IMG/VR virus record: IMGVR_UViG_3300037493_005727
Location: 133,091-190,250 of that record
Source: a virus
DNA length: 57,160 nt
Strand: one strand, 5' to 3'
This document shows positions 30,036 to 49,449 of the stretch, piece by piece. Positions within the stretch are counted from its first letter, which is position 1, and each line of letters starts with the position of its first letter. Below the pieces are notes generated by a model, which had not been told where the DNA came from, ran no database searches, and saw nothing but the letters and a program-made list of their open reading frames with translations. A program made the translations under genes and the position numbers.

Positions 30036-30776
30036 TCATTCGATTGGGATCAACAGCTTCTCACGATACCCCGAATTCAGTTGGGTTGGGTACCCGAACG
30101 GGTTGCAGACGATCCGCGTACCCGAAAGCTGATAATCGAACGAATCATGTGTGTGGCCGTGTACCCAGAGCGCCGGACGCTTGTCAAGGATGAGTTGATC
30201 CGTCTCGGACACAAAGAACGGGTTCGTCGCCGATCCCTTGTACCGGGGGGACACGCTCTTCAAGGTAGGGAGGTAGTGGGTCAGCACTACGTCGCCCTCC
30301 TGCAAATTTTTCTTCAAGAAGTCGTTGAACTTACGGTTCTCCTGGACCAGCCAGGGATGGAAGTCAACGATCTGAGTGAAGTCGTTCATGCGGGTGCTGG
30401 CATACTCGGACATCGGGCTCCACTGAGGCACCCACATCGGACCTCCGAGGAACCGCCGCCCTTTGATGGTGACCAGCTGGTTGTCGAGCATGACGACGTT
30501 GGGAAGCCCAGTGGTGGCGCTTCGAAGAGTTGAGATCGCCTCCGCAGGCTTGAGCTTCCACAGCTCGTGGTTCCCAGGAACGTACAGGATCTGCGGGTAT
30601 TTCGCGGCCAGCTTCTTGAAGACAATCTTGGCCTGGTCGAGGAAGCGGGCCGACATGATGTCTCCCGCCAACAGCAGGATGTCAACGCCCGCGGGGTCCA
30701 TCGAATCAATGAACGCAGCTCCGTTGTCCCTGTGGAGCTCGAAGTGCAGATCGGACGCAACTTGGAGTGTCGGCAT
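30036..30776 (-). CDS. calcineurin-like metallophosphoesterase (246 aa)
   Basis: Motifs in order: DLHFE, GDIM..D, GNHE and HGHTH. Confidence 0.75.
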   Translation of the reverse strand: MPTLQVASDLHFELHRDNGAAFIDSMDPAGVDILLLAGDIMSARFLDQAKIVFKKLAAKYPQILYVPGNHELWKLKPAEAISTLRSATTGLPNVVMLDNQLVTIKGRRFLGGPMWVPQWSPMSEYASTRMNDFTQIVDFHPWLVQENRKFNDFLKKNLQEGDVVLTHYLPTLKSVSPRYKGSATNPFFVSETDQLILDKRPALWVHGHTHDSFDYQLSGTRIVCNPFGYPTQLNSGYREKLLIPIE

Positions 30777-35993: not shown

Positions 35994-36068
35994 GCTTCGT
36001 TACCTCAGTTGGTAGAGGGCCCAGAGTAATGACCTGGGAAGTCGGGGGTTCGAATCCCCCACGAGGCT
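35994..36068 (+). tRNA. tRNA-like gene with canonical acceptor, D and T arms but an apparent 9-nt anticodon loop (AGTAATGAC); identity unresolved
   Basis: Acceptor GCTTCGT/ACGAGGC, D arm CCTC-AGTTGGTA-GAGG and T arm GGGGG-TTCGAAT-CCCCC. The anticodon stem CCCAG/CTGGG encloses 9 nt. Confidence 0.5.
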
Positions 36069-36071
36069 CTT

Positions 36072-36145
36072 GCTCCCCTAGCTCAGTTGGTAGAGCGTCG
36101 GCTGATTTAAGCCGCGGGTCCCTGGTTCGATTCCAGGGGGGAGCG
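36072..36145 (+). tRNA. tRNA-like gene (Lys/Ile-like body) with an apparent 8-nt anticodon loop TGATTTAA; identity unresolved
   Basis: Acceptor GCTCCCC/GGGGAGC, D arm GCTC-AGTTGGTA-GAGC and T arm CCTGG-TTCGATT-CCAGG. The anticodon stem CGGC/GCCG encloses 8 nt. Confidence 0.5.
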
Positions 36146-36829
36146 CTACTTCTTGAGAAGATGGGCTGCGATCAGCCCCGCCACAGACCCGAGGATTCCT
36201 GGGGCGGCTTTACGCAGGACCTCGCCTTTGTTGACGAAGCTCTGGTCAAGGGCCTTCGTCCCAAAGCCCCCAGGCGGCTTGAGCTTGAGCGCCGTTGTTT
36301 CAGTGGGCTTCAGAGCGGGACCTTTGGCGGCCAAGAACTGCTGCTTGTTGGCTTCGTCGAGTCCGTGGAGATCCCACAGCGCTTTCGAGGCAGGGCCGTG
36401 CGCGACACCAGGCCGCCGCATGTGCAGAAGGGCGTCGAACTGGTCCGGGTCTTGATTGACCAGGGTGTCGTAGCGGTCTGAGACGTGCCCCGGAGGAACA
36501 CCGCCAAGGCCCATCCGAAGATCTGCGTCGTAGTGCTGCATTCCGAGATGCCGAGACAGCTCCGACGCCATCTCGCTCTTCCCCGTCCTCGGCAGGCCGC
36601 CGATCCCAATGCGCGCCGTCGCGGGGTCTAAGTGTTTCAACAGGGGCGCGATTTTAGCCGCGTCCGAGATGATCTGTGGATGGATCTTCGCACCTCCGCC
36701 CTGTTGGAGCAGTTCGTTACGCAGGTCCCTGTCCAGTAGCATCTGAAGAGCGATTCCCCCGAGACCTCCAGCAACGGCTCCGAGTCCGTAGTGAAAGGCG
36801 GCAGCGGTCTTTCCTGCGAAATAGAACAT
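36146..36829 (-). CDS. P-loop NTPase/kinase-like protein (227 aa) with hydrophobic termini
   Basis: Walker A motif GIGGLPRTGKSE. It has a GAGGTG RBS. Its stop abuts the 3' end of the second tRNA-like gene, and it lies downstream of the leftward tRNA cluster. Confidence 0.55.
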   Translation of the reverse strand: MFYFAGKTAAAFHYGLGAVAGGLGGIALQMLLDRDLRNELLQQGGGAKIHPQIISDAAKIAPLLKHLDPATARIGIGGLPRTGKSEMASELSRHLGMQHYDADLRMGLGGVPPGHVSDRYDTLVNQDPDQFDALLHMRRPGVAHGPASKALWDLHGLDEANKQQFLAAKGPALKPTETTALKLKPPGGFGTKALDQSFVNKGEVLRKAAPGILGSVAGLIAAHLLKK

Positions 36830-36907
36830 GACACCTCAAGTTTAGGCCAGAGGCTAAAAATGAGCTGGGCATACTCGCCGTTGCTCTTCTCTTCTTCTTA
36901 TACCGCA

Positions 36908-36978
36908 CTGGGGCACGTGGACTCGAACCACGATTCTCAGAGTCAAAGTCTGATGTCCTGCCATTGGACGATGCCCCA
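36908..36978 (-). tRNA. tRNA-Gln (anticodon UUG)
   Basis: Cloverleaf: acceptor TGGGGCA/TGCCCCA with U1-A72, anticodon arm TCAGA-CTTTGAC-TCTGA and T loop TTCGAGT. Confidence 0.7.
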
Positions 36979-37060
36979 TCGGAACGGGGGGACTCGAACC
37001 CCCACGCCTTGCGGCACTAGATCCTAAGTCTAGCGCGGCTACCAGTTACGCCACGTTCCG
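36979..37060 (-). tRNA. tRNA-Leu (anticodon UAG), class II with a long variable arm
   Basis: Acceptor CGGAACG/CGTTCCG, anticodon arm CTAGA-CTTAGGA-TCTAG and variable arm TGCCGCAAGGCGT. It resembles E. coli tRNA-Leu architecture. Confidence 0.7.
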
Positions 37061-37064
37061 CTTG

Positions 37065-37137
<73 letters not shown>

Positions 37138-37724: not shown

Positions 37725-37757
37725 AAAGCCACCGCCTGTACAAGCGCGGTGGCTTTT
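37725..37757. terminator. bidirectional terminator: 11-bp stem AAAGCCACCGC with loop CTGTACAAGC, flanked by A- and T-runs
   Basis: Direct reading of the sequence. The loop is nearly identical to that of the terminator at 38977-39010. Confidence 0.55.
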
Positions 37758-38087: not shown

Positions 38088-38128
38088 TCTTTGGCTCAAG
38101 GACTCATACCCGAATTCTAGCCCTTTTA
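38088..38128 (-). promoter_or_regulatory. copy 1 of the promoter-like motif (...GGGTATGAGTCCTTGAGCCAAAGAT)
   Basis: About 30 nt upstream of the ATG at 38057. It is preceded (in gene sense) by a GC hairpin plus T-run. Confidence 0.4.
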
Positions 38129-41794: not shown

Positions 41795-42694
41795 TTAGGG
41801 TTTCTGGGACTGCGAGAGGGACGTCTGATCAGGGGACAAGAGCGCCTGCACGCAGGCGTTCGCTTCTACGACCTTGAGATACTCCTCTGCCAACGCAGGA
41901 TTGTTCTGCGTTCGATCTGGGTGGTAAAGCCTGGCGAGACGACGAAACTGCGTCTTGATGTTCGCGCGAACCTTCGGCGTGAACTCCCCGTTCTTCGGAG
42001 GGTCCACGTTGAGGACACGAAGAGCCGCATAGAGCCTCTTCGTTCTCGAAGCGTCCGAAAGCTTCTCCGGATCTGCCACTCGAGCGCGTGCGATGATGCT
42101 GCGCCACGTTTCAGTCAACGCCCGAAGATCCGCGCGACCAACGGCGCGGATGTTATAGGCGGCGAATTCTGGGACGCCGACCAGCATCTGGTCGAACAAG
42201 CGTTCCACGGCTGCGAAGAACTCAGTGGACTGCCCTCTGGCAGACAAAGGTTCTTCTGGCTCCTTTTCCGGTGTCCTTGCCCTCGTTTTGCTCGTAGGAG
42301 CATTTTCGGAGGGGCGCTTCTTGTCCAGCGTTCCCGCCAGATACGCCTGGATAGTCGCTTCTACTTTCTCGGGCGTTGGTTGCTGTTTGTCGTCCCGCGA
42401 CCGAGCGATGATGATTCCGCTCGACCGGAGCGTAACCTTCTTAGCTTCGAGCGCCGCCCAGATAGGCTCCGCCGCAGCGCCCACCCGGTGCAGGATCGCC
42501 CGATCCATGATGTGTCGGGGTCCTGCGTTCTCAGAGCCGGGGGGCAACTGAGCGGTGATCCAGTAGCCGCAGTAGTTTTTGCGGGCTCCTGGAGTGTCTG
42601 GAGTGAACGCGCGCATCTCGTGTTCAACCTGAGCGCGCTCCTTTTCACTGGTACTGGCAACCCACGCCAGAACCAGCTCTGCGATCGATCTCAT
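41795..42694 (-). CDS. J-domain (DnaJ-like) protein (299 aa)
   Basis: Its C-terminus IKTQFRRLARLYHPDRTQNNPALAEEYLKVVEANA matches the J-domain helix II/III with the HPD motif. Confidence 0.55.
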   Translation of the reverse strand: MRSIAELVLAWVASTSEKERAQVEHEMRAFTPDTPGARKNYCGYWITAQLPPGSENAGPRHIMDRAILHRVGAAAEPIWAALEAKKVTLRSSGIIIARSRDDKQQPTPEKVEATIQAYLAGTLDKKRPSENAPTSKTRARTPEKEPEEPLSARGQSTEFFAAVERLFDQMLVGVPEFAAYNIRAVGRADLRALTETWRSIIARARVADPEKLSDASRTKRLYAALRVLNVDPPKNGEFTPKVRANIKTQFRRLARLYHPDRTQNNPALAEEYLKVVEANACVQALLSPDQTSLSQSQKP

Positions 42695-45028: not shown

Positions 45029-45064
45029 GCTTTGGCTCAAGTCCTGATACCAAAAAACAGCCCC
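45029..45064 (-). promoter_or_regulatory. copy 3 of the promoter-like motif (TTTTTTGGTATCAGGACTTGAGCCAAAGC)
   Basis: It is followed to the right by the nested hairpin GCCCC-AA-CCTAC-GAAG-GTAGG-A-GGGGGC with flanking T/A runs. Confidence 0.4.
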
Positions 45065-45102: not shown

Positions 45103-45627
45103 TTACGAGGGCAACTGGTACCGGGACGTTTCAGGGTCCCAGAGCAGCAGCTCGTGATCCCACCAGGGCATCATCCCCTTGGTGCCCTCGTCGAGGGCGG
45201 CGGCCATGCGGTCCACCCTGACCTGGGGGACCCCGTGGGTGTTGCGCGGACCGGCGATGGCCGGGTCGATGCGGAGGGTCATGATGACCACCTCCGCCCC
45301 GAACGCCTGCCCGACCGCCACGTAGGGGGCGATCTCAGCCACCGACGTGGACGTGTTGTCCACCACGATGACCGGCTCGGGGACGGGGTTACGGACCCCG
45401 GAGATCTTGGCCAGCTCGCGCTGGGCATACCCGTCCTGCAGGTGCTCGATGACCGAGAGCAGGCACGCCCCGTGAGCCGCCGGGAGCTTGGCGGGGTTGA
45501 AGACGTACTTCTCCCCTTCCATCATCCCGTCGTCCGCCGACGCGATGAGGTCAGCCTTGGGGAGCTCCTTCCGGGCGAAGGTGCTCTTCCCGCTGCCGGG
45601 GATGCCTCGAAGAATGATAAGGCGCAT
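45103..45627 (-). CDS. polynucleotide-kinase-like P-loop kinase (T4 Pnk kinase-domain-like, 174 aa)
   Basis: MRLIILRGIPGSGKSTFARKE plus a downstream VVDNTSTS segment. It parallels the T4 Pnk kinase domain (IILTIGCPGSGKSTWARE...ISDTNL). No phosphatase domain is present. Confidence 0.5.
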   Translation of the reverse strand: MRLIILRGIPGSGKSTFARKELPKADLIASADDGMMEGEKYVFNPAKLPAAHGACLLSVIEHLQDGYAQRELAKISGVRNPVPEPVIVVDNTSTSVAEIAPYVAVGQAFGAEVVIMTLRIDPAIAGPRNTHGVPQVRVDRMAAALDEGTKGMMPWWDHELLLWDPETSRYQLPS

Positions 45628-45711
45628 GGGTGGTCCTTTCTCGGCTTTCACCGAAGTGAGACGCAGTGCCAATAACTAGCCACCTCCGGCTCCCATGCAG
45701 GAGCTTGCGTC

Positions 45712-45746
45712 GGGTTCAAGTACTAATACCCTAAAAATGATCAGTT
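45712..45746 (-). promoter_or_regulatory. copy 4 of the promoter-like motif (AACTGATCATTTTTAGGGTATTAGTACTTGAACCC)
   Basis: Near-identical to copies 5 and 6. Confidence 0.4.
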
Positions 45747-46151: not shown

Positions 46152-46997
46152 ATGTTCTACCGCCTCGGACAGCATCATGCTCTCGCCGCATTAGGCCTCG
46201 AAAAGCTCGCGGCGATTCTACGCCCAGGGATTGGGGGTCCCGCGGCGGAGATTCAACGGCACGTCGACACCGGTAACTTCGCTGAAGCTTCCAGGCTGGC
46301 TCGGCAACCAGGGGCTTTCGTGGATCAGCAGCACCTCAGCCCTTTTGACCTCGGACACCACATCCGGCATCTCGGGGCGGGGGTCGAAGGCAGCGCGGAA
46401 CTGATGGTCCACCCCCAGCACGGCGTCAACGCCACGAAGATCTACGACCCTCGGGGGATCACTAAGCGTCGTGGGGTTGAACTCAAAGGGGAGGCGTTCA
46501 ACCGTATCCAGAACTTCGAACCCAGGTCTACCAGAGATCGTGAGCTACAGCAGCATCTCGTACGCCTCCTTGGGCAGACAACGCCTCCCAGGCCGACAGA
46601 CGCCGGGATCCCGACGGTTCTCCCAGCCCACCACTTCGAATTCGTGCCTGGGCATCACGGGGATCATGTTCTACCCGCTGACCAGGAAGCCCGTTTCACG
46701 ACGCTGCAGGGGCAAATGCGCGACTTCATCCCCAGGGCTACCGGCGGTATGACGGTCCACGACACCAACAAGCGGGACAACTGGATCATCGGTCCTGATG
46801 GCCGCCCCACTCTGGTCGATTTCTCCCTTACCAGCGCTCCGGGCGCTTCTTGGGGGGACATCCAGCAGAAGGCGCTCCCCGGGGCGGACCCTAAAACAAT
46901 CTTCGCCCGCCACAGGGAAGGGTTTGATTCCGCCGAACCGTCCGACGACCCACGCTACGCCGAACCCCCGCCGGTGAGGGCGGGGGCCCGACGTTAG
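46152..46997 (+). CDS. protein-kinase-like protein (atypical or eukaryotic-like kinase fold candidate, 281 aa), rightward gene inside the leftward block
   Basis: It is the only long ORF over this 850-bp stretch and its codon third positions are GC-biased like the rest of the genome. VHDTNKRDNWII resembles the HRDLKPEN catalytic loop, and TLVDFS resembles DFG. Confidence 0.45.
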   Translation: MFYRLGQHHALAALGLEKLAAILRPGIGGPAAEIQRHVDTGNFAEASRLARQPGAFVDQQHLSPFDLGHHIRHLGAGVEGSAELMVHPQHGVNATKIYDPRGITKRRGVELKGEAFNRIQNFEPRSTRDRELQQHLVRLLGQTTPPRPTDAGIPTVLPAHHFEFVPGHHGDHVLPADQEARFTTLQGQMRDFIPRATGGMTVHDTNKRDNWIIGPDGRPTLVDFSLTSAPGASWGDIQQKALPGADPKTIFARHREGFDSAEPSDDPRYAEPPPVRAGARR

Positions 46998-47398
46998 CTT
47001 TCCAGCGTTGAAACCCAGCTGCGCAGCTTTTCTGGGGTCAGCTCGTTGAAGGGGACACGGGTGACATCGAACCCCGCGGCCGCCAGGATCGTCACCATCT
47101 TCATGGCTCCGGGGGTGTTCATGGAGTGCACGAGAACGGGGACTCCTTGATCGAGCTTCTGCGCAACGGCCTTTGCCACGACGCCCCCGTTGGTGAAGGC
47201 GCCGTCAGCCGTGACCCCCTGCTTGTACAGGTCGTAGTCCAACAGGACCCCGTGGTAGGTGTCCGCCTCGTCCTTCTTGAGGATGGCCAACGCAGCGCCG
47301 CCTGAACGCGCCCAGACCACCCGCACCTCTTTGGGGAGGTGCGCCGTGAAGAAGGCATGCCGGTCAGAGTCATCCTCGACCAGCAGGAGGCGGATCAT
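46994..47398 (-). CDS. stand-alone response-regulator receiver (REC/CheY-like) domain protein (134 aa)
   Basis: MIRLLLVEDD...VLLDYDLYK...VLVHSMNTPG...K pattern. It has a GGAGAGGAGGAAGC RBS. Confidence 0.5.
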   Translation of the reverse strand: MIRLLLVEDDSDRHAFFTAHLPKEVRVVWARSGGAALAILKKDEADTYHGVLLDYDLYKQGVTADGAFTNGGVVAKAVAQKLDQGVPVLVHSMNTPGAMKMVTILAAAGFDVTRVPFNELTPEKLRSWVSTLES

Positions 47399-47727
47399 GC
47401 TTCCTCCTCTCCAAAGTCGATCTCGAGCATGATCTTCTGTTCGATCCGCTTTTGGGACCACCCGGCCTTGGCGAGGTGGCAGACAGCCAACTCCAGCGCC
47501 ATCTGGAACTTCCAGCGCCCCAGCGAGGTGTCTTCCGCCTGCCCAAGCTTATTGGCGTAGCGGAGGATGGCGACCCCCGATACCAGGTCCTGCTCCTGGC
47601 GGTCCGGCGGTCCAGCGAGGGCCCTGGCTCGCCCAAAGGCCACCTTGTAGGCCTCCGGTCCAACCACGAACAGCTCCAGCCACTGGCCGTAGAGAAACCC
47701 GGCCAACCAACCTAGCGCGTAGCGCAT
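47395..47727 (-). CDS. hypothetical protein (110 aa)
   Basis: The ATG lies 30 nt downstream of motif copy 5. Its stop overlaps the REC start (ATGA). Confidence 0.5.
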   Translation of the reverse strand: MRYALGWLAGFLYGQWLELFVVGPEAYKVAFGRARALAGPPDRQEQDLVSGVAILRYANKLGQAEDTSLGRWKFQMALELAVCHLAKAGWSQKRIEQKIMLEIDFGEEEA

Positions 47728-47756: not shown

Positions 47757-47796
47757 TCTTTGGCTCAAGGTCTAATACCCCTAAAAAAGATCACTT
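47757..47796 (-). promoter_or_regulatory. copy 5 of the promoter-like motif (AAGTGATCTTTTTTAGGGGTATTAGACCTTGAGCCAAAGA)
   Basis: It is preceded in gene sense by the hairpin GGGGGCCCCCC-AAAA-GGGGGTCCCC (47810-47836). Confidence 0.45.
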
Positions 47797-47851
47797 TACT
47801 GATGGGTAGCGGGGACCCCCTTTTGGGGGGCCCCCGGCGAACCAGGGTGAC

Positions 47852-48064
47852 CTACCGCTTGGCCTTCTTCTTGGCCTTCTTCTTGGACCTGGCGGGCTTC
47901 CCGAAAAGGGACACGACGAAGCGCTCGTCCGCGGCCTTCTCCTCCTCCGAAGGGTCGAACCAGCCCCACGAATCCATCAACCGCACGCCACCCACCGCGC
48001 CCACCAGCGCGCCGCCAGCCGAAACAGCGGCCACCGCGGCGCTCTTAAGAATCGTTCCGATCAT
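47852..48064 (-). CDS. small membrane protein with a Lys-rich C-terminal tail (70 aa)
   Basis: The ATG at 48064 has a GAAAGGA RBS. It has a hydrophobic helix (ILKSAAVAAVSAGGALVGAVGGV) and then KKKAKKKAKR. Confidence 0.45.
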   Translation of the reverse strand: MIGTILKSAAVAAVSAGGALVGAVGGVRLMDSWGWFDPSEEEKAADERFVVSLFGKPARSKKKAKKKAKR

Positions 48065-48585: not shown

Positions 48586-48623
48586 GGGGTTCAAAGTCTA
48601 ATACCCTAAAAAAGATCACTTTT
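48586..48623 (-). promoter_or_regulatory. copy 6 of the promoter-like motif (AAGTGATCTTTTTTAGGGTATTAGACTTTGAACCCC)
   Basis: Near-identical to copy 5. It is preceded in gene sense by the hairpin around 48628-48655. Confidence 0.45.
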
Positions 48624-48666
48624 ATGACCCCCAGGGACCCCCTTTCGGGGGCCCCCGGAACCGCCT

Positions 48667-49449
48667 TTACTTGGTAAAGTGGCGAACGGTGCCTTTGAGG
48701 CGAATGGGAGCGACCACCCCCCAGCCCTTCTTGAGCAGTTCATTGGAGTAGACGGGGCTGCTCACGCACGAAATGGTGACGTGGTGCAGCTGCCCCAGAC
48801 TCGGGGCGTTGTAGGGCTCAGGCAGCGTGACCTTTACCGCCTGCCCCTTGTCGTCGGAGGCCTCCCCGACGACCTCGAACTCCACGACCTTCTCGAGGAG
48901 TGGCTCAAAAGCCTTGATCAGTTCAGGCCCAGGCTTGAACGCCAAGGTCACGTGATGCCCAAAGACCTTCGGGTGGATGGGCGGGAAGGCCTTGAGCAGG
49001 GCGTCCTTGGAAGGCTCGTCCAAGAAGATCGCCGTGTAGACGGGCTTCGGCTGAACTGGGATTCTGAGCAGGGCCAGCGCCTTCTCTGGCACCCCGTCGC
49101 AGCTGGGGTGGCAGTCGTGCTTCTCCAGGGCGGCAATGGCCGCCATGATTCGTTCGTCCGAAGCTCTCCAGCCAGCTCGGGAGATCCGGTCATTCTCCTC
49201 GGCCTTGGTCACCTGCTCCGCGAAATACTTCACCTTCTCATCGGCCAACTGCTGGCCCAGTTGCTCGTCTTCGAGCTCCTTGATGCGCTTGTGCAAGCGC
49301 GCCTTGGTCTCCATGAAGATCGTTTCATGGTCTCGGATGAGCTCCGCCTGGTCGCGGATGGTCTGTTTCATCTCCCGCTCCCGCATCTTCAGCACGATGA
49401 CGTCACCCATCGCTTGTCCAAGCCCGATAGCAGGATCTCCTTCACTCAT
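48667..49449 (-). CDS. 2H phosphoesterase superfamily protein (LigT/CPDase-like) with an N-terminal coiled-coil extension (260 aa)
   Basis: It has two H-x-T-x motifs, HHVTLAF and LHHVTIS, in the C-terminal approximately 130 aa. The N-terminal approximately 130 aa are Glu/Lys/Arg-rich helical. Confidence 0.55.
   Translation of the reverse strand: MSEGDPAIGLGQAMGDVIVLKMREREMKQTIRDQAELIRDHETIFMETKARLHKRIKELEDEQLGQQLADEKVKYFAEQVTKAEENDRISRAGWRASDERIMAAIAALEKHDCHPSCDGVPEKALALLRIPVQPKPVYTAIFLDEPSKDALLKAFPPIHPKVFGHHVTLAFKPGPELIKAFEPLLEKVVEFEVVGEASDDKGQAVKVTLPEPYNAPSLGQLHHVTISCVSSPVYSNELLKKGWGVVAPIRLKGTVRHFTK

Follow-up and report, generated by a model that had tools for sequence, protein, structure and literature searches.

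A stand-alone phage protein of the cREC family with a receiver fold and a non-canonical active-site pattern

The DNA analysed here, referred to as the window, is a 57,160-nucleotide stretch of the IMG/VR virus record IMGVR_UViG_3300037493_005727 (positions 133,091 to 190,250 of that record; all coordinates below are those of the stretch). On its minus strand, positions 46994–47398 (134 codons plus a stop) encode a 134-residue protein beginning with MIRLLLVEDDSDRH, which Pfam family PF20274, homologue searches, an AlphaFold model and profile alignments identify as a cREC-type, receiver-like protein. The ATG start codon occupies 47398–47396. A Shine-Dalgarno-like sequence, GGAGAGGAGG (47403–47412, minus strand), was read directly from the sequence; its AGGAGG (47408–47403) lies 4 nt 5′ of the ATG, and the whole element is positioned within the 3′ end of an upstream open reading frame (ORF) of 110 residues. 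A longer, 155-residue reading from an upstream GTG at 47461 is not favoured, as the N-termini of homologues begin at M1. The G+C content at third codon positions (GC3) is 0.83, similar to that of the neighbouring genes, and the same gene was called in an independent Logan assembly. An exhaustive HMMER search over 1.84 billion representatives recovered 358 relatives at E ≤ 1e-3 (best 1e-33) and 120 at E ≤ 1e-10, which puts the ORF far beyond chance: it is a genuine gene. A preliminary description of this DNA, made from the letters alone, had proposed the 134-residue ORF, with its strand unstated, and a strong ribosome-binding site; both were borne out, the gene lying on the minus strand.

In Pfam, the protein matched PF20274, cREC_REC (“Cyclic-phosphate processing Receiver domain”), with 32 bits (E 2e-7; the cut-off is 27), whereas the general receiver family PF00072 (Response_reg) remained below its cut-off, with 12.8 bits against 30.2 (E 0.14). 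The Response_reg search that the preliminary description had suggested as a check thus fails, and PF20274 passes in its place. Nearly all relatives are 130–200 residues long and match from end to end, which indicates a stand-alone architecture. As the earlier description had held, there is no output domain: neither Pfam nor the AlphaFold model revealed a second domain in the 134-residue protein. Among the full-length relatives, 128 of 133 matched cREC_REC, and 21 of the 133 also matched Response_reg weakly (E < 0.01); automatic annotations at JGI and UniRef label homologues “CheY-like” or “response regulator”. The best PHROG match was phrog_1479, a family of unknown function. NCBIfam yielded nothing useful for the protein, and PADLOC returned no defence-system match. 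The 6-kb region had no megablast match among phages, and tblastn of the protein against 50,697 phage and 72,556 plasmid records found none either, leaving the protein without a cultured relative. A single-sequence search of the PDB gave noise only, and the family profile reached receivers weakly (E about 1e-4). We assign the product to the cREC family with high confidence. The cREC lineage, whose receiver fold is divergent, occurs on phages, prophages and conjugative elements, and the protein is a new, divergent member of this already named, computationally predicted family.

To the structure modelling also proposed in the preliminary description, AlphaFold2 run with the family alignment gave a clear answer, with a predicted local distance difference test (pLDDT) score of 94.8 and a predicted template modelling (pTM) score of 0.89. 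The model comprises five strands alternating with five helices, (βα)5, with lower certainty only in the loop spanning residues 61–70. When the model was compared with the PDB using Foldseek, all of the top 50 matches were receiver domains, with template modelling (TM) scores of about 0.65–0.73. The best match among viral predicted structures (BFVD), at 30% identity and E 1.8e-7, was a cREC-annotated protein from an uncultured phage of the Caudovirales; further structural matches included the cREC proteins of Pectobacterium phage CBB and Aeromonas phage 65. The protein is thus confidently modelled as a receiver (REC) fold, and the earlier proposal of a stand-alone REC-fold protein in phage-like DNA is upheld.

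To compare the active site with those of known receivers, residues were mapped by profile alignment to the receivers RcpA (1k68) and CheY. E8 and D9 align with the CheY acid pair D12/D13, D54 with CheY D57 and the RcpA acceptor, that is, with the phospho-acceptor position, and S92 with CheY T87, the Thr/Ser position. Accordingly, the acidic EDD pocket, the acceptor-like Asp in LLDYDL and the downstream Ser/Thr position noted in the preliminary description all hold up. The same alignments pair D56 with CheY N59, G71 with G65, H91 with V86 and N94 with E89, and place about nine extra residues between D56 and G71, which lengthens the β3–α3 loop relative to receivers. These residues fall in the motifs VEDD (E8, D9, D10), LLDYDL (D54 and D56, forming DxD) and HS (H91, S92). 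Conservation across the family is sharp: in the N-terminal part E8 is kept in 93%, D9 in 87%, D10 in 53% and R13 in 97% of sequences; in the central part D54 in 99%, D56 in 95% and G71 in 93%; and after strand 4 H91 in 94%, S92 in 95% and N94 in 89%. R13, at the start of helix 1, is invariant across the family, and W128 is conserved in the C-terminal helix. Strand 5 corresponds to residues 112–114 and is followed by V115-P116-F117. The profile alignments ended before this strand, and the receiver Lys position was mapped from the xPF motif and the predicted secondary-structure register; it falls on V115, which is I, V or T across the family and is preceded by a semi-conserved R114 (54%). The preliminary description had counted the receiver Lys as present and had made the receiver assignment depend on the alignment of both Asp and Lys; the Asp does align, but the Lys does not. 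Loss of the Lys, together with D56, H91, R13 and the long loop, constitutes a non-canonical receiver signature.

The cREC family was defined by the Aravind group in a survey of jumbo phages as a divergent receiver never found with histidine kinases. There it was linked to genes of NAD+/ADP-ribose processing and RNA repair, and it was “posited”, as a computational prediction, to process cyclic ADP-ribose or 2′,3′-cyclic nucleotides (Iyer et al., Viruses 2021, PMC7824862). A further study (Viruses 2022, PMC9503650) locates cREC mostly in phages and prophages, including up to 18% of jumbo phages, often fused to Nudix, and in neighbourhoods containing a sirtuin, a T4-like RNA ligase, a nucleotide kinase and MazG, which a calcineurin-like phosphoesterase joins in some cases. 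The protein described here resembles that family in passing its Pfam cut-off, in its REC fold with conserved aspartates, and in being borne by phages and mobile elements without linkage to histidine kinases; the 2H phosphoesterase and the nucleotide kinase nearby may be a further parallel. The founding members, however, come mostly from jumbo or T4-like phages and are often Nudix fusions or lie in sirtuin or RNA-ligase neighbourhoods, whereas the present subfamily is always stand-alone, occurs mainly in elements of uncultured sediment organisms or anaerobes and has no conserved neighbourhood.

The gene contexts of relatives were compared at 13 loci with precomputed annotation and 80 metagenomic loci (searched with a 6-sequence alignment), which came to 78 after removal of duplicates. 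The genes of these relatives occur in prophage and integrative-conjugative-element cargo, together with integrases, ParA and TraH/TraF/TrwB. Beside cREC we found DUF1848 at 7 of the 78 loci, usually directly downstream, a TrwB/HerA-type ATPase at 6, a DnaB-like helicase at 5, PP2C at 4, and NUDIX, HD and an S-adenosylmethionine (SAM) methyltransferase at 3 each, the methyltransferase sometimes preceding cREC. Macro, CYTH, PLDc and RelA_SpoT with HD_4 each appeared near cREC on a single occasion. DUF1848, whose function is unknown and for which the literature was uninformative, is next or close to cREC in L005, L006, L010, L011, L029, L033 and other loci. Some elements, L027, L029 and L033 among them, carry two cREC paralogues. 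Histidine kinases showed no linkage: no such domain was present among the families common to at least 2 of the 149 nearest neighbours, and neither a histidine kinase nor an Hpt protein recurred as a neighbour in the 78 loci. Within 8 kb of cREC, only 1 of the 13 annotated loci contained a histidine kinase, which is 5.4 kb distant and belongs to another operon, in seemingly chromosomal DNA. In the window itself, no histidine-kinase domain (HisKA/HATPase_c) was found among the genes scanned. Association of this subfamily with genes of RNA repair or NAD+ metabolism is suggestive, not compelling.

In the window, cREC belongs to a block of small genes of early type on the minus strand, interspersed with hairpin-plus-motif modules, and several of its neighbours are predicted to act on phosphoesters. 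At 48667–49449 (minus strand), 1.3 kb upstream of cREC and on the same strand, a gene encodes a 260-residue protein with a coiled-coil-like N-terminal half and a C-terminal 2H domain of about 125 residues. Both HxT motifs of this domain are invariant in 36 sequences, the domain was modelled with a pLDDT of 94.2, and the top 49 PDB matches all come from the catalytic domains of CNPase or RICH (E about 2e-5; TM score about 0.72). Four homologues carry PF08302, the cyclic phosphodiesterase (CPD) domain of fungal tRNA ligase. Homologues annotated as hypothetical are present in the jumbo phages Atu_ph07, SCTP-2 and Phosso, and homologues sit on contigs of 171–187 kb. By its motifs and modelled fold, the product qualifies as a bona fide 2H cyclic phosphodiesterase of the CNPase/tRNA-ligase CPD type. 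On the other side, 1.3 kb downstream of cREC, 45103–45672 (minus strand; 45103–45627, 174 residues, in the Logan call) encodes a P-loop kinase of the AAA_33, polynucleotide kinase (PNK)-like type (AAA_33, E 6.9e-9; phrog_2071; phrog_505, polynucleotide kinase, E 1.3e-4). A second P-loop kinase-like gene with a weak AAA_18 match is found in the early block at 36146–36829 (minus strand). Further away, 30036–30776 (minus strand) encodes a calcineurin-like metallophosphoesterase (Metallophos, E 4.5e-11), and five phage tRNA genes, confirmed by Rfam, occupy 35994–37137 on both strands: the minus strand carries those for Gln(TTG), Leu(TAG) and Thr(TGT) at 36908–37137, and the plus strand carries two at 35994–36146, one of which ARAGORN reads as Ile with anticodon AAT, the other having an unassignable anticodon. 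By analogy with tRNA-repair systems, the 2H protein, the PNK-like kinase and the calcineurin-like phosphoesterase may represent the “healing” activities of ring-opening, 5′ phosphorylation and phosphate removal, in a phage that also carries tRNA genes of its own.

Guided by the published prediction and by this local context, we tentatively read the cREC protein as a cyclic-phosphate phosphoesterase, an assignment that we rate as somewhat short of probable. Speaking in its favour are the membership in PF20274, the receiver fold, the conserved active-site pattern, the lack of kinase linkage and the phosphoester- and nucleotide-processing neighbours at other loci, as well as the 2H protein, PNK-like kinase, five tRNAs and calcineurin-like phosphoesterase in the window and the prediction itself (PMC7824862, PMC9503650). 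From the residue pattern we infer that the protein would act as an enzyme on a phosphoester and not as a signalling switch, in line with a predicted family logic that is enzymatic and conflict-related. In such an enzyme, D54 would attack the phosphoester as nucleophile or act as a metal-site residue, D56 would serve as acid/base, like the second Asp of the HAD DxD motif, with H91 as another proposed acid/base, and H91, N94 and R13 would keep the phosphate of the substrate in place. It would open or remove cyclic phosphates, for example the terminal 2′,3′-cyclic phosphates on RNA that has been cut by anticodon or toxin nucleases of the host; ADP-ribose cyclic phosphates and molecules of the cyclic ADP-ribose (ADPR) type are other candidate substrates. 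cREC would then be one component of an early phage toolkit for RNA repair or counter-defence, to which the 2H cyclic phosphodiesterase, the PNK-like kinase and the tRNAs of the phage would also contribute.

Several observations weigh against this assignment. No neighbour is conserved in the subfamily, the commonest, DUF1848, reaching only 7 of the 78 loci, and the window's own neighbours never recur, so that guilt by association is weak. A scan of the window genes, which are mostly orphans and cover 57 kb of a 190-kb contig, turned up neither an RNA ligase nor a KptA/Tpt1, sirtuin, Macro or NUDIX gene. A second 2′,3′-cyclic phosphodiesterase would be redundant beside a true 2H enzyme unless the substrates differ, and the catalytic roles suggested for D56, H91 and R13 derive from their positions. 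Moreover, cREC is stated to be experimentally uncharacterised in PMC9503650, and a literature search for later experimental work on any cREC protein found none. In one attractive division of labour, the CPD-type 2H protein would open RNA 2′,3′-cyclic phosphates and cREC would process a different cyclic phosphate, for instance that of ADP-ribose, which arises from NAD+-dependent 2′-phosphate removal; this scheme is speculative because a KptA-type gene was not detected in the 57 kb. A related idea, which we consider improbable, is that the pocket formed by D54-x-D56, H91, S92, N94 and R13 is that of a receiver-fold phosphodiesterase destroying host immune second messengers, candidates being cyclic ADPR isomers, other ADPR-derived signals and oligonucleotides ending in a cyclic phosphate. 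If true, it would be a new structural class of counter-defence enzyme of phages and conjugative elements, and the first receiver domain shown to be a dedicated hydrolase rather than a switch.

Instead, the substrate could be non-cyclic and the protein a phosphatase or phosphotransferase with a HAD-like aspartyl-phosphate mechanism, with RNA 2′- or 3′-phosphomonoesters, nucleotide alarmones, other nucleotides and phosphoproteins as candidates; we regard this as unlikely, though worth weighing. The active site of HAD phosphatases resembles that of CheY, and HAD motif I has an Asp two residues past the nucleophile. The D54/D56 DxD pair with the acid pair would mimic this chemistry, and the likeness to HAD phosphatases (DxDxT motif I) extends to an Asp nucleophile, an Asp at +2, a Ser/Thr and an acidic metal site. 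It is, however, no more than an analogy of mechanism: the fold topology differs, the motif lies on another strand, and our protein lacks a cap domain and is not a member of the HAD family. The PP2C, HD, NUDIX and RelA_SpoT with HD_4 neighbours at other loci fit such a phosphatase, as does the division of tasks in the window, where the 2H protein would cover ring-opening and the kinase 5′ phosphorylation, leaving a 2′/3′-phosphatase step over. That step, though, could be performed by the calcineurin-like phosphoesterase of the window, and the published prediction prefers cyclic substrates (PMC7824862). Much the same low probability attaches to a non-catalytic role, in which the protein would be a sponge for a phosphorylated or nucleotide-derived molecule, such as an immune second messenger, or a switch that changes its contacts with a phage or host partner upon binding or phosphorylation. 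A small, stand-alone protein without output domain, located in variable mobile-element cargo where anti-defence genes cluster, would suit this role; the conserved polar pocket could bind as well as catalyse, and the C-terminal helix with W128 offers a possible interaction surface. Retention of the full receiver acid set with an added Asp and His is nevertheless more typical of an enzyme, and we found neither a conserved partner gene nor any sign of an oligomeric sponge architecture.

Very unlikely, in our assessment, is the function put forward in the preliminary description, in which a canonical orphan single-domain response regulator would be phosphorylated on D54 by host kinases or phosphotransferases and act as a phosphate sink or decoy for two-component systems. 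The protein does share with CheY and Spo0F (PF00072) the (βα)5 fold, with a TM score of about 0.7, the acid pair, an Asp at the acceptor position and, after strand 4, a Ser that corresponds to the receiver Thr/Ser. The 21 of 133 homologues reaching E < 0.01 on Response_reg and the “CheY-like” or “response regulator” labels of homologues point the same way. Yet the protein falls well short of the Response_reg cut-off and has V115 in place of the strand-5 Lys (CheY K109), and the invariant R13, D56, H91 and N94 and the 9-residue insertion after the acceptor Asp are foreign to receivers. The claim is also unsupported by genetic linkage, as no kinase association emerged from the 78 loci or from PMC7824862 and PMC9503650, although a host partner unlinked to the gene could still exist. 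Finally, the spread of the family across hosts on phages and conjugative elements fits poorly with the partner-specific docking required of a decoy.

The cyclic-phosphate assignment brings the protein close to the 2H phosphoesterases (CNPase, tRNA-ligase CPD, LigT) in its predicted reaction, cyclic-phosphate opening, and one of these is encoded 1.3 kb away; the likeness is functional only, since their fold and their catalytic residues, two HxT motifs, are unrelated. Automatic “CheY-like” or “response regulator” labels misleadingly suggest that phages plug into host two-component signalling, whereas placement in cREC shifts attention to RNA-end or nucleotide-signal chemistry. The family combines a wide distribution on mobile elements with a sharply conserved non-canonical active site, and a compact, confidently modelled protein of 134 residues near a 2H protein and a PNK-like kinase makes a convenient candidate for a first biochemical study of cREC.

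With respect to expression, the upstream 110-residue ORF (47395–47727, minus strand), of unknown function, overlaps the cREC start with its stop as ATGA, which suggests translational coupling. It is not kept beside cREC at other loci, and as a cREC partner it was rejected, the small ORFs at similar places in other loci being unrelated. When all window neighbours were compared by tblastn with the first 13 related loci fetched (L002–L014), cREC was the sole match. About 35 nt 5′ of the 110-residue ORF lies a copy of a repeated promoter-like motif (47761–47798, minus strand; core GGTATTAGACCTTGAGCC at 47762–47779). The motif, GGTATNAGNNCTTGARCC, has five minus-strand copies (38093–38110, 45034–45051, 45713–45730, 47762–47779 and 48588–48605), against 0.12 expected from dinucleotide shuffles. 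Every copy is upstream of a minus-strand early-type gene, with a run of T before the motif and often a G+C hairpin too. A generic sigma-70 scan found nothing at the copy upstream of the cREC unit, and the motif does not match the sigma-70 consensus, so that its recognition may depend on a sigma factor, or an RNA polymerase specificity, peculiar to the phage. Its position and repetition suggest a promoter role, and the copy at 47762–47779 is likely the start of a two-gene unit of the 110-residue ORF and cREC. On this model, cREC, second in the unit and coupled in translation to the first gene, would owe its expression to the phage-specific promoter-like motif. The preliminary description had placed the gene downstream of a copy of the motif; the copy does exist upstream, but the 110-residue ORF intervenes.

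The unit is bounded by hairpins. A G+C-rich, terminator-like hairpin of 10 bp (47811–47835, minus strand; read directly from the sequence) follows the preceding small gene and comes before the motif copy, with which it forms a hairpin-plus-motif module; a similar module is seen at about 48640–48660. A small gene at 47852–48064 (minus strand) encodes a protein whose N-terminal segment is hydrophobic and rich in Gly and Ala and whose tail, KKKAKKKAKR, is Lys-rich; the gene spans 12-nt tandem repeats (GGCCTTCTTCTT). At the other end, 8 nt past the cREC stop and between convergent genes, an 8-bp G+C hairpin, CCCCCGCC-GGTGA-GGGCGGGG (46965–46986), resembles hairpins at 37727 and 38984 (family D7) and may be a bidirectional terminator. 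The convergent ORF of 281 residues (46152–46997, plus strand) overlaps the cREC stop by 4 nt and was called as a gene; that it codes for protein is plausible, not proven. It shows weak protein-kinase-like matches (NCBIfam Ser/Thr kinase, E 1e-3) around the catalytic-loop-like motif VHDTNKRDNWIIGPDGRPTLVDFS. On the contig of the closest cREC relative (L012, 3177–3485, minus strand), a convergent, overlapping ORF carries a kinase-like DLHHGNFVL...KLID motif; pairwise similarity between the two ORFs is not significant (E 0.095). The 281-residue product may be a kinase-like partner of cREC, or the arrangement may just be shared synteny.

Most genes of the window are orphans: the majority of its large ORFs, among them the plus-strand ones of 518, 931, 517, 602 and 417 residues, lack a Pfam or PHROG match, and the DNA matched no cultured phage. 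The window is phage-like, with matches to a head maturation protease, head decoration, a Peptidase_M15_4 endolysin, a Laminin_G_3 fibre-like protein and Phage_phiTE_072 and a weak match to a gp5-like spike. A protein identical to the cREC product is on record from a 190-kb JGI contig, and the window is probably a portion of a large, very divergent phage genome. The product of 41795–42694 (minus strand), 299 residues long, matches DnaJ (J-domain) at its C-terminus (E 6.4e-7) and is a possible co-chaperone of the phage.

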